Assembly: GCA_964016885.1 (NCBI GenBank)
Contig: OZ024740.1
Coordinates: 85,126,001 to 85,190,000, forward strand
Source: Eledone cirrhosa
Taxonomy: Eukaryota
Reading direction: 5' to 3'
DNA: 64,000 nucleotides
Positions 23,838 through 61,262 of this stretch are shown here, piece by piece (the stretch's first letter is position 1; each line of letters begins with the position of its first letter). The notes beneath the pieces were generated by a model. The model was not told the origin of the DNA. It was given only the letters and a program-made list of their open reading frames with translations, and searched no databases. The translations under genes were made by a program, and so were the position numbers.

Positions 23838-24527
23838 GAAAAAATGGGGAGAAGAATACTGCAGGTTGCACATGGATAACATGTAATAAAATGAGTCCCT
23901 CATCAGTGATTTGCCGACGATCATAGATATTTCATTGCATTAAAAATCATATACCTCACGTCGGTGCAATAATAACTAAATTAAGTTATTAGGACAATTA
24001 AAACGCGTAAAGCGAGTGAGACAAGATAACAACAAAGAGGAGAGCTAACCGTAGAGAGGAAGGGAACAAGCTACATAGTTATTCTGTTAGCATAAGCTAG
24101 GTGAATATATGAGCGCTTAGAAAAAAGACCTTTCGGGATGAATACAAATGTGAGAAAGAGAGAAAATGTTTTCGTCGCGAACGGGGTGAAGTGAGAAGGG
24201 GTGAAACAGTGAGTGAGTGAGTGGAAGTGTGAGGAAGAGTTAACTGACATGACAGAGGGGGCGAAAGAAAGTAGGAGAAACAGAGAGAACGAGGGAGCAG
24301 TAAGAGAGAGAGAGAGAGAGAGAGAGAGAGAGAGAGAGAAAAAAACAGAATCGCAGTTTAGGTAAATATATGTGAAAAAATGGGGAGAAGAATACTGCAG
24401 GTTGCACATGGATAACATGTAATAAAATGAGTCCCTCATCAGTGATTTGCCGACGATCATAGATATTTCATTGCATTAAAAATCATATACCTCACGTCGG
24501 TGCAATAATAACTAAATTAAGTTATTA
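23838..24527 (-). mobile_element. Non-coding partial-tandem element (unit ~536 bp), same family as 60151-61262
   Basis: 23838-23990 repeated at 24374-24527; flanked by (TA)n; carries the GAAA...ATCACTGATGAGGGAC motif. Confidence 0.8.
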
Positions 24528-24638
24528 TATATATATATATATTAAAATATATGTAGGAGGTGAGTTTTATTGTAGTACAATAAAGCAATGCAGACATTGG
24601 ATAAGAAGCACTCTACAGTTTATAGGACTGGAGTATAC

Positions 24639-26733
24639 ATAATATAAGATCAAAAGATGGTTAAAGGAGTTCCATGTATTTTATTATGCGCATTTCAAAA
24701 ACAAACATCATCATGCAATAATATTTGTGTTTTCATCAGATAAAACAGGAGAACATGATATGAAGGCCAAAAAAACACTTGTGGATAGTGCAGTTTTAAA
24801 TCAACATATGAAAAGTGGTTTTAGATTGATGTGTGATATTGGGAAAAATATTTTATTTAGAGAGGGGGGGTGGTGGAAAGGATGAAAAAGGGGAGGAGAT
24901 GAGAGGGAGAGATGGGTGATAGAGAGAAAGAGATAGTTTTTATAACTGAGAGAAGATATATTGTTTTACATAGAGAGGTTGAAAACCGTTGGAAGATAAT
25001 GTATAAATTAAAAGAATTTGAAAATTAGCGAAGGGAAAGATATGTACGAGGAAAAAAAAATATAATATTTTATTTAGGGAGGGGGGGGGGAAGGATGAAA
25101 AAAGGGGGAGGAGATGAGAGTGAAGGTGGAGAGGGAGAGATGGGTGATAGAGAGAAAGAGATAGTTTTTATAACTGAGAAAAGATATATTGTTTTACATA
25201 GAGAGGTTGAGAACCGTTGGAAGATAATGTATAAATTAAAAGAATTTGAAAATTAGCGAAGGGAAAAATATTTGTTTTCTATCTGCCTGCATAAATTCCA
25301 TAGGACTTTTCACAAAGTATACAGTTAATATTCAATTCTTTATCAATTTAGAATCTTTTCTCAAAGGCACATATACATACACCTCTTTAAAATATACCCA
25401 TCTTCCTACCTTACTTTAAAGGGCATTATACACTCTATAATACTTGTTTACTCATTACCCTCTTTCTATCTTCACCTTGTAAAATCCTTCATAACATATA
25501 CATTTGTTTTTTTGACGTTAGAATATTCATCCGCAATTATTATTATTTTTTCTCTCTATCATAAAACTTTTTAATCTCAATTTCATCCTTAATTTATTAT
25601 TTTTTTCTCCCCATCAACGAACTCATTCTTAATACATATTAACTCGTTCTTCGCACATATTATCAATTCCTTCAATATACAAACTTTAACTTTCTATCTT
25701 CACCTTGTAAAATCCTTCATAACATATACATTTGTTTTTTTGACGTTAGAATATTCATCCGCAATTATTATTATTTTTTCTCTCTATCATAAAACTTTTT
25801 AATCTCAATTTCATCCTTAATTTATTATTTTTTTCTCCCCATCAACGAACTCATTCTTAATACATATTAACTCGTTCTTCACACATATTATCAATTCCTT
25901 CAATATACAAACTTTAACTTCACATTATTTTTCTCAAATCCTTCTACACACAAACCTTAATAATTTTTTTTCTCTTCGTTAATTTTGAAATTGCCACAAT
26001 ACTTATCAACATACACTTTTTTCACGTTAGAATATTCATCCACAATTATTATTTTTTCTCTCTAACTTCATACATAAACTCCCTCTCTTTCCTCGCAAAT
26101 ATTTTTCCCTTCGCTAATTTTCAAATTCTTTTAATTTATACATTATCTTCCAACGGTTCTCAACCTCTCTATGTAAAACAATATATCTTTTCTCAGTTAT
26201 AAAAACTATCTCTTTCTCTCTATCACCCATCTCTCCCTCTCCACCTTCACTCTCATCTCCTCCCCCTTTTTTCATCCTTTCCACCCCCCCCCCCTCCCTA
26301 AATAAAATATTATATTTTTTTTTCCTCGTACATATCTTTCCCTTCGCTAATTTTCAAATTCTTTTAATTTATACATTATCTTCCAACGGTTTTCAACCTC
26401 TCTATGTAAAACAATATATCTTCTCTCAGTTATAAAAACTATCTCTTTCTCTCTATCACCCATCTCTCCCTCTCATCTCCTCCCCTTTTTCATCCTTTCC
26501 CCCCCCCTCTCTAAATAAAATATTTTTCCCAATATCACACATCAATCTAAAACCACTTTTCATATGTTGATTTAAAACTGCACTATCCACAAGTGTTTTT
26601 TTGGCCTTCATATCATGTTCTCCTGTTTTATCTGATGAAAACACAAATATTATTGCATGATGATGTTTGTTTTTGAAATGCGCATAATAAAATACATGGA
26701 ACTCCTTTAACCATCTTTTGATCTTATATTATA
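24639..26733. mobile_element. Large fold-back element: ~635 bp arms, ~820 bp spacer, HHR near each outer end
   Basis: 24639-25274 is the reverse complement of 26096-26733; tandem duplications within the arms and in the spacer (25465-25690 / 25693-25920). Confidence 0.88.
26626..26692 (+). ncRNA. Type I hammerhead ribozyme (copies 24679-24745 minus, 28674-28740 minus)
   Basis: TTTTAT-CTGATGA-stemII-GAAA-TGCGCA-TA-ATAAAA; palindromic ATGCGCAT stem III, AUA triplet. Confidence 0.85.
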
Positions 26734-58135: not shown

Positions 58136-60150
58136 CAAAGCTTTAGCAATGCTGACAAGAAAGAAAGGTTGTGTGACATGTTTACTGAAATCTACTTCTT
58201 AAGACATGGAAAAAAAAATTGAATAAAAAAAAAAGATGTGAAAGAGGACAGAAAGAGGGATCGGCATACTCTCCCCAGAAGTCTAGTTTCAGTTTCACCC
58301 TACAGAGAACAGCCAGTAACATCCACTGCATCAGCCACCCCACTCCACGGGACCTCTTCATTAACAGATATATTACTAGATGTCTCAACGGCAATGCGCA
58401 CGATATGGAAGCGATCGATCAATATTGCCGAAGAAAGTATTAAATAGAAGCAGTAGAAAAATGCACAATACCCAATATTTAAACAGTAAAATATAATGTT
58501 TTCAATTATAGATCAATGTTGGTGAATATCAGACATGAATTGATCTACGATAATGCCTTGTAGATAGTTTTTCATATAATATTGGAAAATTGGTTTAGAT
58601 CGGTTGGATGAATACAATAGCTGTTATCTACATTCAACGATCTTTGGGAAAACAATTAGGGAAATATGAGCATATAAAAGAGATAGATCGATAGATAGAT
58701 AGATAGATAGGTAGGTAGATAAATAGATAGACAGATGGATAGATAGATAGATAGATAAATAGATAGATAGATAGTGAAAGAGACAGTGAAAGTGAGAGAT
58801 ATGTGTGAATAGATTGAGTAAGTGAGGTGGAGGATGAGAATGAGGAATAGCTTTACAAAAGAAGAAAACTTAACAACTATATGCATAATAAACAACTTCA
58901 AAAAGCATTGCTGTTGTGGATATGTTTATCTGCACTGTATGTCCACATAAGTTAAAAATATCTTTTTAAATTACTGAGACTTGCGGTAGTCATCGGATTT
59001 TGAAGGTAACTAATACGAATACGGATAATTAAAGGATTAAAATAATCCCTTTTGTGATTCTTCGTTACATTTTAGAATAAGGAGACAACGAGAGAGCCTT
59101 TGCAACCTCGTTCAATTTGTTAGAATTAGCATTCAACTGTATTATTAAAATGAACATTAGATAATGTAATCTTAGCTACACTGTGTCTGATAAACGAAAC
59201 AAAAATACTTATATATTTACTCTATTATAAATATTAAATGTTGAATTCTTTCTCATTTGTGGACTACTAAGATCTCTAGAACAGAAGTAACTTAAACACA
59301 CACACACACACACACACACACACACACACACACACACACACACACACACACACACACACACACACACATACACATGCGCGTATGTATGTATAACGTTTAC
59401 AAATCAGTGCTACATGTTTCATGGTTTTGTCGAGTCCAACCACGAAACATGAACAATTAATAAGCACGCGGTGAGGGTGAGGGGGTGACGATCATTCGAG
59501 ACCCAAGTGTAAATGATATAAGAATTTGGTTTCGTTTCTACACATTCTGATATACAATCTCACCAGAGTCAATAAGATATATACCAGTAATATATTAAGT
59601 ATATATCTATCTAGAACTGGATTAAATCCTTTTGAGGCCTTAAGTACTTAAAAGGTTATGGTGCCTCCACCGTCCACCATATCTAAAGTCGGCAAAAAGA
59701 TTTTTGGAATGGTAAATACATTTAATTTTAATAAAACAGTGCCTGTCTTCCATTAATGCCCTAAGAATGTACATATTTTGCTTAACGGTTAATCCAGCCC
59801 TAGTTTATTTGACTATATCCCTCTCCAGTCTTAGATATATTGTTGTTACAGCAAGGAACGCTGGACTAAATATCTTACAATTACTATTAAATTCCATCTC
59901 ATAGGGTTCGGTGTTTTGAATTCCGCTAGGATAAACTGTGATTTTAATCACTTCCATGTCGATCAAATAAATACCAGTAGTAATACTAGGGTTGGTATAA
60001 TCGGCTATATATCCTACCTAGCAAGCATTGGTCGTCTGCCCAGAGAAAAGCATAAGCTAAAACGAACATAGATATTATGTAATGGCACAAGTAACTTATA
60101 AAAATTCCAAGAAATTGGAGAACTGGTTATATATATATATATATATATAT

Positions 60151-61262
60151 ATATGATTTTTAATGCAATGAAATATCTATGATCTTCGGCAAATCACTGA
60201 TGAGGGACGTATTTTATTACATGTTACCATGTGCTACCTGCAGTATTTTTCTCTATATTTTAATACATATATTTACCACTGCGATTCTGTGTTTTTTTCT
60301 CTCTCTCTTACTGTTCCCCCATTCTCTCTGTTTCTCCCCCTCTGTCTTGTCCGTTAACTCTTCCTCACACTTTCACTCACTCACTGTTTTTCTCCCTCTT
60401 CTCTTCATTTCATCCTGCACTCACGGACGCTATTTTTTCTCTCTCTGCTCAATGGCCTTCGTTCGTGCTGGCACTATTCTTTCTCTAAGCGCTCATATAT
60501 TCACCTAGCTTACGCTAACAGAATAATTTTTGAAGCTTGTTTCTCTCCCACGGTATGCTATATTTTCTGTTGTTCTCCTGTCTCACTCGCTTTACGCGTT
60601 TTAATTGTCCTAATAACTTATTTTGGTTATTATTGCACCGAAGTGAGATATATGATTTTTAATGCAATGAAATATCTATGATCTTCGGCAAATCACTGAT
60701 GAGGGACGTATTTAATTACATGTTACCATGTGCTACCTGCAGTATTTTTCTCTATATTTTAATACATATATTTACCACTGCGATTGTGTTTTTTTCTCTC
60801 TCTCTTACTGTTCCCCCATTCTCTCTGTTTCTCCCCCTCTGTCTTGTCTGTTAACTCTTCCTCACACTTTCACTCACTCACTGTTTTTCTCCCTCTTCTC
60901 TTCATTTCATCCTGCACTCACGGACGCTATTTTTTCTCTCTCTGCTCAATGGCCTTCGTTCGTGCTGGCACTATTCTTTCTCTAAGCGCTCATATATTCA
61001 CCTAGCTTACGCTAACAGAATAATTTTTGAAGCTTGTTTCTCTCCCACGGTATGCTATATTTTCTGTTGTTCTCCTGTCTCACTCGCTTTACGCGTTTTA
61101 ATTGTCCTAATAACTTATTTTGGTTATTATTGCACCGAAGTGAGATATATGATTTTTAATGCAATGAAATATCTATGATCTTCGGCAAATCACTGATGAG
61201 GGACGTATTTTATTACATGTTACCATGTGCTACCTGCAGTATTTTTCTCTATATTTTAATAC
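60151..61262 (+). mobile_element. Tandem non-coding element, ~2.2 copies of a ~498 bp unit, in (TA)n; retrozyme-like
   Basis: GATCTTCGGCAAATC at 60181, 60680 and 61177. Confidence 0.88.

Follow-up and report, generated by a model that had tools for sequence, protein, structure and literature searches.

Within a 64,000-nucleotide stretch of the Eledone cirrhosa genome (contig OZ024740.1; hereafter, the window), three elements, e1, e2 and e3, carry copies of one conserved motif which is predicted to fold as a non-circularly permuted hammerhead ribozyme of type SGC, in which the cut site comes first, followed by GAAA and then by CUGAUGA. The elements and motif copies are located as follows:

23838..24527, minus strand (24527-23838): e1, one complete 536-bp unit and a partial unit
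23895..23995, minus strand: e1 hammerhead copy, SGC-type and complete, with the cut predicted after 23950 (AUA)
24431..24527, minus strand: second e1 hammerhead copy, predicted cut after 24486
30158..30172, minus strand: short inverted copy of element sequence adjoining the 5' side of e2, read from sequence
30178..30946, plus strand: e2, a 648-bp unit and a partial unit
30185..30286, plus strand: e2 hammerhead model copy, predicted cut after 30231
30833..30934, plus strand: e2 hammerhead copy with the model complete, the cut being predicted after 30879
60151..61262, plus strand: e3, two units (499 and 497 bp) and a partial unit, with a (TA)n tract on either side
60154..60208, plus strand: first e3 copy, comprising the ribozyme model's 3' half alone, with its stem I strand, GAAA and CUGAUGA
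60607..60707, plus strand: complete SGC-type hammerhead model in e3, predicted cut after 60652
61104..61204, plus strand: third hammerhead copy of e3, complete, with the cut predicted after 61149

An earlier sequence-only reading of the window had reported three retrozyme-like elements with periods of 536, 648 and approx. 498 bp and seven motif copies; both counts were confirmed, with the last period resolved into units of 499 and 497 bp. While that reading considered the families otherwise dissimilar, e1 and e3 are approx. 79% identical over the entire unit, and e2 matches both with 66-71% identity across 200-290 bp. Reading frames in the elements are short and of low complexity only, i.e., the elements are noncoding. 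(TA)n borders every 3' end; e1 is truncated at its 5' end (at 24527) and passes into (TA)n at its 3' end, and e2, whose unit includes an internal duplication of 131 bp (30499-30771), terminates at the shorter of two fixed 3' ends. The inverted copy at 30158..30172 is a putative Penelope-type inverted 5' segment. The 5' end of e3 has the position of the predicted cut site, at a junction that is blurred because of TA microhomology. Among the motif copies, the 5' truncation has removed the 5' strand of the closing helix (P0) from the second e1 copy, the e2 copy at 30185..30286 has a private change that breaks one distal stem II pair, and (TA)n stands in place of the upstream half of the first e3 copy. 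A young Penelope-type element (42049-47430) showed no DNA match to the e1, e2 or e3 repeats. A TRIM/LTR reading was rejected by eye, because the ends show polarity and neither a primer-binding site nor a purine tract is present.

A descriptor covering all six possible block orders assigned all seven window copies to type SGC (stem I with 6-8 bp and stem III with 4-6 bp), with no SGC solution in 20 shuffles. The sequence holds all 11 core nucleotides and an AUH cut triplet; the NUH site is located 17 nt upstream of GAAA, and in this S-G-C order pairing is complete in stems I and III, both of which covary. The 5' strand of stem II derives from upstream sequence, not from the sequence after CUGAUGA, where P0 begins immediately. 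Stem II is thus split by a junction containing P0 and a hairpin, and an interaction helix connects stem I with stem II; contiguous stem II in the E. cirrhosa genome copies amounts to at most the first pair, R10.1-U11.1. The conserved unit begins approx. 45 nt upstream of the cut site and is larger than had been recognized before. For the model at 60607..60707, the parts are placed as follows:

60607-10/60704-07: P0, the closing helix
60611-32: hairpin
60633-36/60664-67: distal stem II
60703/60668: pair 10.1-11.1
60638-43/60683-88: interaction helix
60646-51/60672-77: stem III
60653-58/60690-95: stem I
60669-72: GAAA
60696-702: CUGAUGA

A scan of the window with a model built from the motif found the seven copies and no other match below E 0.5; four of the seven were in the training set of the model and their recovery is by construction. 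The comparison with Rfam proposed by the sequence-only reading, covering the window up to an E of 5, did not return any ribozyme family, and the lack of a hammerhead match is expected because covariance models cannot hold the SGC order. We conclude that the motif is a variant of a known hammerhead class (SGC) and not a new class; as type SGC requires an uninterrupted block C, which is split here, the motif is filed as an SGC variant rather than as a plain member. The earlier description of the elements as retrozyme-like, of the hammerhead blocks as permuted and of the RNA as a candidate for self-cleavage thus stands, while the suggestion of a new ribozyme does not, as SGC fits 7/7 copies. Alternatively, the motif could be a type II hammerhead whose stem II fits poorly (with TGAT/ATCA as stem I), a twister-like ribozyme or a wholly new ribozyme class. 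The placement of GAAA before CUGAUGA, which was borne out, the closing of the motif by GTCTT/AGGAC, which are indeed the P0 strands, and the lack of an Rfam match would all agree with these readings. However, the descriptor gave no GSC (type II) solution in any copy, stems I and III of the SGC fold pair and covary, and the small hairpin that RNAalifold places over CUGAUGA showed no compensatory change; we thus consider these readings very improbable.

Pairwise identity among five family units was 81% in the ribozyme region, while the spacer (47%), the upstream sequence (53%) and the 3' tail (68%) gave lower values, so that the motif, in a check proposed by the sequence-only reading, is more conserved than its flanks. 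Covariation, the other such check, was found as compensatory changes in stem I, stem II and stem III as well as in the interaction helix among 22 copies. In these copies, 93.8% of the cells in a model with 36 pairs were paired (0/500 shuffles reached this value, and slid controls were paired at 28-45%), and 10 pairs showed double changes (4 in the hairpin, 3 in the interaction helix and 1 each in distal stem II, stem III and stem I), although these counts represent non-independent events because sequences within one genome are related. The interaction helix, with double changes in 3 of its 6 pairs, also provided the top MI-APC pair, and among the 20 highest MI-APC pairs in 100 copies only 4 were model pairs. 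Nested folding recovered P0, the hairpin, the interaction helix and stem III (z from -0.8 to -2.5), but not stems I and II.

We also sampled 100 genomic copies with a pattern that left the core open. Core positions C3, U4, G5, A6, G8, A9, G12, A13, A14 and A15.1 were 96-100% invariant. A minor allele reached at least 10% in 26 of the 78 free columns, and these included none of the 11 core positions (P = 0.008). Position N7 was U in 84 and C in 16 copies, H17 was A in 86, C in 14 and G in none, U16.1 was U in 100/100, and the A15.1-U16.1 pair was formed in 98/100. Each of the 6 pairs of stem I and the 5 pairs of stem III was formed in 97-100 of the 100 copies, with several columns of these stems fixed by the search pattern, and four distal stem II pairs were formed in 94-98 copies, including a U-A/C-G change. 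The 10.1-11.1 pair is U-G or U-A, not G-C, in the E. cirrhosa genome, and two registers compete, i.e., U11.1 can pair with the purine after A9 in 99/100 copies (this purine being fixed by the pattern) and with the upstream strand, in an alternative register, in 97/100. The non-canonical 10.1-11.1 pair would be in line with a fold of hammerhead descent that is slow or dead as a ribozyme and has been retained for recognition or priming by reverse transcriptase (RT), with arrays arising by template jumping or from read-through multimers and no circle. The pattern of constraint in the 100 copies (G8, G12, C3 and U16.1 fixed, N7 free and H17 never G) is, on the other hand, that of a catalytic RNA, and we consider a slow or dead ribozyme unlikely.

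Genome-wide, one motif pattern yielded 9,900 exact matches as compared to 0 for a reversed control. Repeat copies are spread across many chromosomes, copies of the e3 family are 94-99% identical to one another and head-to-tail arrays reach at least 6 units. The 3' ends of the copies are fixed in (TA)n while their 5' ends are variable, and inverted 5' arms are present. Among 112 aligned segments, the 3' end fell between +117 and +126 in 64 and between +64 and +73 in 21, the shorter end often being on an inverted arm. Conversely, 5' ends did not pile up at the predicted cut, with 8/112 aligned segments within 10 nt of it; this lack of a footprint again favors a slow or dead ribozyme. Among (TA)n junctions near the motif, 4/20 fall on the predicted cut. 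Units of one array share a subfamily haplotype, which is expected both under circle and under multimer templates, and thus under both models of array formation; likewise, the difference in substitutions within arrays (5.1) vs between arrays (7.9) does not separate circle from multimer templates. The arrays are compatible with copying from circular RNA. Arrays of this length would also be found if the repeats were satellite DNA or a DNA-level mobile repeat (arising by local duplication or as a rolling-circle DNA element) with an incidental motif; the failure to find an intact partner among the candidates scored (see below) points the same way. This explanation is nevertheless given hardly any credence, as the copies are polar (3' ends being fixed and 5' ends random, and the inverted 5' arms carrying the shorter tail), are dispersed over many chromosomes and share their predicted RNA fold with some Naiad 3' UTRs, on the coding strand.

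Naiads encode GIY-YIG and RT domains, and canonical hammerheads were reported to be absent from them, with 'HHR_core' or 'HHR_half_core' annotated in some (Craig et al. 2021, PMC8557442). Among 84 Naiad loci from metagenomes, chosen by protein and not by motif, the descriptor found 8 matches, all SGC and all on the coding strand, with 7 located in 3' UTRs; locus L246 represents a ninth match. Overall, the predicted fold is present in 8/47 Naiad 3' ends and in one upstream Naiad repeat from these metagenomes, while 39/47 Naiad 3' regions contain no CUGANGA anywhere. A stricter descriptor gave 0 matches in 10 sets of shuffled tails, and a relaxed descriptor yielded one spurious match within an ORF (L205). 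In 9/9 loci, stem II has 6 bp, begins with G-C and takes its 5' strand from upstream (G10.1), P0 (4-8 bp) directly follows A9 and a single hairpin is located between P0 and stem II; 11.1 cannot pair with the letter that follows A9, leaving 0 contiguous stem II pairs. An Rfam scan of 20 Naiad loci found no ribozyme family at gathering score. The same fold was seen by eye in the published Naiad_Obim and Naiad_Ovul 3' ends, the latter of which carries the annotation 'HHR_half_core', and the split-stem SGC fold likely explains the published Naiad 'HHR half-cores'. The absence of the core from most sampled Naiads would be consistent with a slow or dead ribozyme, as would the head-to-tail arrays formed by non-autonomous Chlamys, most Chlamys being without a detected canonical hammerhead (PMC8557442); against this, the core is retained among Naiad loci that share no sequence in their helices.

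No intact Naiad gene was found in the E. cirrhosa genome among the candidates scored (150 of 165 and 150 of 1344), which were broken pieces only, and all Naiad RT matches seen were short or broken. This genome also gave 0 matches to two short motifs taken from the octopus Naiad end that has been published, and no Naiad relative was found in viral contigs. Decayed E. cirrhosa Naiad 3' ends retain the motif only as a decayed trace; the RNA model R1 did not recognize the decayed end, decay was too great for pair tests in six such ends, and beyond the motif trace e1/e2/e3-type repeats showed no clear DNA homology to the decayed Naiad. Set beside the 94-99% identity of e3-family copies, this decay weighs against the model given next.

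Taken together, these data suggest that the elements are Penelope-type noncoding repeats, likely derived from Naiads, in which each unit has a predicted SGC hammerhead with a split stem II that likely cuts tandem transcripts to unit length; we regard this model as probable. Under this model, tandem units would be transcribed by read-through and cleaved once per unit (e.g., after 60652 and 61149) to monomers of 497-648 nt, which the host may ligate to circles, as for type I retrozymes. A Penelope-like RT/GIY-YIG protein acting in trans would then carry out target-primed reverse transcription at (TA)n; synthesis would start approx. 115 nt beyond the cut and continue around the template, producing n plus partial units. 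With somewhat better than even confidence, we further propose jointly that the motif is an active, multiply pseudoknotted hammerhead with four blocks, in which the link between A9 and stem II is broken and an extra four-way junction is present, beyond the six permutations thought possible; that it is the hidden ribozyme of an entire branch of Naiads across animal phyla; and that it drives abundant circular RNAs of 500-650 nt missed by all canonical hammerhead searches. If true, non-circularly permuted hammerheads would move from anonymous environmental RNA to animal genomes, with approx. ten thousand copies in one species, and the apparent absence of hammerheads and the 'half cores' in Naiads would have a testable answer. 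Moreover, a stated design rule for hammerheads, which are the small ribozyme studied best (CUGANGA contiguous with its stem II strand), would be broken, and retrozyme or ribozyme censuses by type I-III descriptors or Rfam would overlook a whole class.

Type-SGC hammerheads (HRIMA-1 and variants; Eckert, Friedrich, Weinberg and Weinberg 2023, PMC10085705) cleave in vitro and were described from metatranscriptomes, with none in genomes of known organisms. The motif described here shares with them the S-G-C order, the full core and a helix joining stems I and II, with a short linker between these stems (4-5 nt in E. cirrhosa and 1-5 in Naiad loci, as compared to typically 3); unlike them, it sits in a genomic retroelement with approx. 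10^4 copies, and its CUGANGA is separated from the stem II strand. What is new in the predicted fold is this splitting of stem II, at a junction that contains P0 and a hairpin; the same predicted fold is present in Naiads. The split departs from a rule (PMC10085705) under which nothing ever comes between CUGANGA and its stem II strand, so that activity cannot be assumed, although a stem II of one pair works in other hammerheads (PMC3088659; PMC11300833). In the pseudoknot hammerhead (PDB 8YDC; Zhan et al. 2024, PMC11300833), similarly, only the 10.1-11.1 pair is formed before a helix from elsewhere acts as stem II; its core is active while that of E. cirrhosa is predicted, its A9 continues via 10.1 to a loop and G12 while the E. 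cirrhosa chain exits into P0, and, unlike in 8YDC, the E. cirrhosa block order is non-circular. Animal non-LTR retrozymes are defined by type I hammerheads and were searched for with canonical type I/III descriptors (Cervera and de la Pena 2020, PMC7229834; Li, Clavereau and Pollet 2026, preprint 10.64898/2026.07.22.740005). The E. cirrhosa elements resemble them as noncoding tandem units of a few hundred bp, each with one (here predicted) hammerhead and with a proposed Penelope-type origin, and differ from them in the pseudoknotted SGC form and the lack of a type I hammerhead. Unlike Naiads, the E. cirrhosa repeats encode nothing; they share with these Penelope-like elements (TA)n targeting, a fixed 3' end, 5' truncation, partial tandems and inverted 5' copies with a tail at a single end, all matching the published description (PMC8557442), as well as the RNA fold predicted for some Naiad 3' UTRs.

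Three tandem elements flanked by (TA)n had been described in the sequence-only reading, and these, together with seven copies of a shared motif, were present in the sequence as claimed; the cuts predicted with our descriptor are given with each element.

23838-24527, minus strand: tandem element, period 536 bp, predicted cuts after 24486 and 23950
30178-30946, plus strand: tandem element, period 648 bp, predicted cuts after 30231 and 30879
60151-61262, plus strand: tandem element, periods 499/497 bp, predicted cuts after 60153, 60652 and 61149

Rather than being "otherwise dissimilar", as that reading had it, the families are relatives, i.e., the first and third elements are approx. 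79% identical throughout and the second shows 66-71% identity to them over 200-290 bp. The motif was indeed more conserved than its flanks, as the ribozyme region was 81% identical among five family units, compared to 53% upstream, 68% in the tail and 47% in the spacer. Nothing convincing is encoded by the units, and an Rfam comparison of the window returned no ribozyme at E values up to 5. In the 3.0 Gb animal genome, one motif pattern had 9,900 exact matches as compared to 0 for the reversed control; the motif copy number is therefore approx. 10^4 or more. A 131-bp internal duplication at 30499-30771 accounts for the units of 630-648 bp and is absent from related units of 505-521 bp.

With a descriptor that admits the three hammerhead blocks in any of the six possible orders, all seven copies showed the order cut site, GAAA, CUGAUGA (SGC), which bears out the suggestion of permuted hammerhead blocks; 20 shuffles of the window gave no SGC match and 0.05-0.15 matches per shuffle for the other orders. 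According to the accessible text of Eckert et al. 2023 (PMC10085705), type SGC cleaves in vitro and was recovered solely from metatranscriptomes. Our full model has 36 pairs, in a closing helix directly after CUGAUGA (P0), a hairpin, stem II, a stem I-II interaction helix, stem III and stem I. Covariation was found as well: among 22 copies, 93.8% of cells were paired with double changes in 10 pairs, none of 500 shuffles had so high a paired fraction and slid controls reached 28-45%, figures that represent support and not a probability as these copies are related and were chosen by motif. A fairer test used a pattern that left U16.1, H17, GAAA and CUGANGA open (7,836 matches; control, 0). In the first 100 matches listed, the 11 core positions were 96-100% invariant. 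A minor allele of at least 10% occurred in 26 of the 78 columns left unspecified, none of them a core position (P = 0.008), while the two positions that are free in hammerheads varied (N7, U84/C16; H17, A86/C14 and never G). Of the 20 highest-ranking MI-APC pairs in these 100 copies, only four belong to the model because subfamily structure dominates. Nested folding recovers P0, the hairpin, the interaction helix and stem III; stems I and II, which cross, are beyond what it can show. All of the available sequence tests mark the motif as a hammerhead.

In SGC ribozymes, the strand following CUGANGA forms one side of stem II, and according to Eckert et al. (PMC10085705), insertions of more than 1-2 nt are not known at that point. 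Here, by contrast, the strand before GAAA pairs far upstream, with four distal stem II pairs formed in 94-98 of the 100 copies (with a U-A/C-G change). P0 is formed by the sequence following CUGAUGA and the 5' end of the motif, and a hairpin that covaries separates it from the upstream stem II strand. In this genome, U11.1 can pair in two registers, either with the purine right after A9 (99/100) or with the upstream strand (97/100). The first is favoured by the covarying pair closing the hairpin, and it leaves stem II with a single pair before a junction. A one-pair stem II is reported to be functional in other hammerheads (PMC3088659; PMC11300833).

The same fold was found among 84 Naiad loci from metagenomes and genome bins, chosen by protein (N-terminal GIY-YIG, CxC and DKA motifs). 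The descriptor gave eight matches in eight loci, all SGC and on the coding strand; one is upstream of an ORF and seven are in 3' UTRs, out of 47 loci with at least 250 nt after the ORF match. In L246, one of the other 40, the motif is present but its stem I is weak. The remaining 39 (within L178-L258) lacked CUGANGA over up to 900 nt searched after the ORF; these may have lost the ribozyme, may use another RNA element or may be cut short by contig ends. The nine motif-bearing loci represent about seven distinct sequence types, and their helices have little sequence in common. All nine have a 6-bp stem II with a strand from upstream and a G-C first pair, a letter after A9 unable to pair with 11.1, a P0 of 4-8 bp right after A9, and one hairpin between the stem II strand and P0. 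A stricter descriptor had no matches on 10 sets of shuffled tails and passed five of the nine loci, 4/7 window copies and one spurious site. By eye, the published ends of Naiad_Obim and Naiad_Ovul and several other Naiad records in the PMC8557442 supplement show the same layout, and Naiad_Esco fits partially. On visual reading, two published 3' ends there resemble type CSG hammerheads that have an interaction helix and an uninterrupted stem II; CSG has so far been described from only two metagenomic sequences.

The motif form is new in two respects, i.e., the split stem II and the home in animal retroelements. In the accessible text of Craig et al. (PMC8557442), Naiad_Ovul and Naiad_Esco carry the annotation "HHR_half_core" and no canonical hammerheads are reported in Naiads. 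Our literature searches turned up no paper that locates a ribozyme of this kind in Naiads, retrozymes or the genomes of animals, and related cases could stand in subscription papers or the PMC10085705 supplements; a 2026 paper (PMC13725137, accessible text) still cites Eckert et al. 2023 for alternative permutations.

The window also holds the following features.

1138-1882: Penelope-like fragment, long inverted repeat at 1610-1882
11972-15388 and 21231-23148, plus strand: non-LTR retrotransposon RT frames
15777-20937, minus strand: non-LTR retrotransposon RT frame
42049-47430, plus strand: Penelope-type element, partial tandem, RT and C-terminal GIY-YIG (Pfam), one stop at 44998
57052-58023, minus strand: host gene, Hsp20/alpha-crystallin family, two domains
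61375-61430, minus strand: type I-like hammerhead, core with N7 = A and with U-U at 10.1-11.1, intact stems I and III, cut predicted after 61386

Two non-LTR retrotransposon families lie in 11972-23148. The type I-like hammerhead lies close to the third tandem element and is probably the inverted end of the neighbouring Penelope-like fragment (61496-61951). An old, decayed Naiad family (L091-L147; approx. 185 candidate places, copies 68-77% identical) retains a mere trace of the motif at its 3' end, and its protein pieces resemble the published Naiad_Ovul, a likeness that points to an octopod as the likely source. No intact Naiad gene was among the candidates scored in this genome, although copies of the family of 60151-61262 are 94-99% alike. 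The element at 42049-47430 is young and has its 3' end in (TA)n, as the repeats do; it is a candidate helper that could act in trans on them. A variant type I hammerhead-like core was seen by eye near 47255-47290 in this element.

By analogy with type I retrozymes (PMC7229834; preprint 10.64898/2026.07.22.740005; accessible text), we infer that tandem transcripts would be cut once per unit by the predicted ribozyme, a host ligase would circularise the monomers, and a Penelope-like RT provided in trans would prime at (TA)n and copy one or more rounds. Array units have a common subfamily haplotype, which fits circle and multimer templates alike. Genomic footprints do not bear this scheme out: 8 of 112 5' ends were within 10 nt of the predicted cut, and 4 of 20 (TA)n junctions near the motif fell on the predicted cut, with TA microhomology as a confounder.

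These ends were mapped in 112 aligned segments from 75 non-overlapping loci (90 fetched). The 5' ends were scattered across the whole unit. At the 3' side, 64 segments stopped at positions +117 to +126 relative to the predicted cut, and another 21 stopped at +64 to +73; approx. 15 others were mostly short (CT)n-only matches. Arrays reach at least six units, and an inverted 5' arm, which often stops at the shorter 3' site, is present in many of the insertions. Overall, we consider it quite likely that the elements are Penelope-type non-coding repeats, likely Naiad-derived, with a split-stem-II SGC hammerhead in each unit that likely cuts tandem transcripts. The repeats show the anatomy that Craig et al. 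(PMC8557442, accessible text) describe for Naiad and other Penelope-like elements, i.e., truncated 5' ends, partial tandem copies, a 5' copy in inverted orientation, a tail at a single end and targeting of (TA)n.
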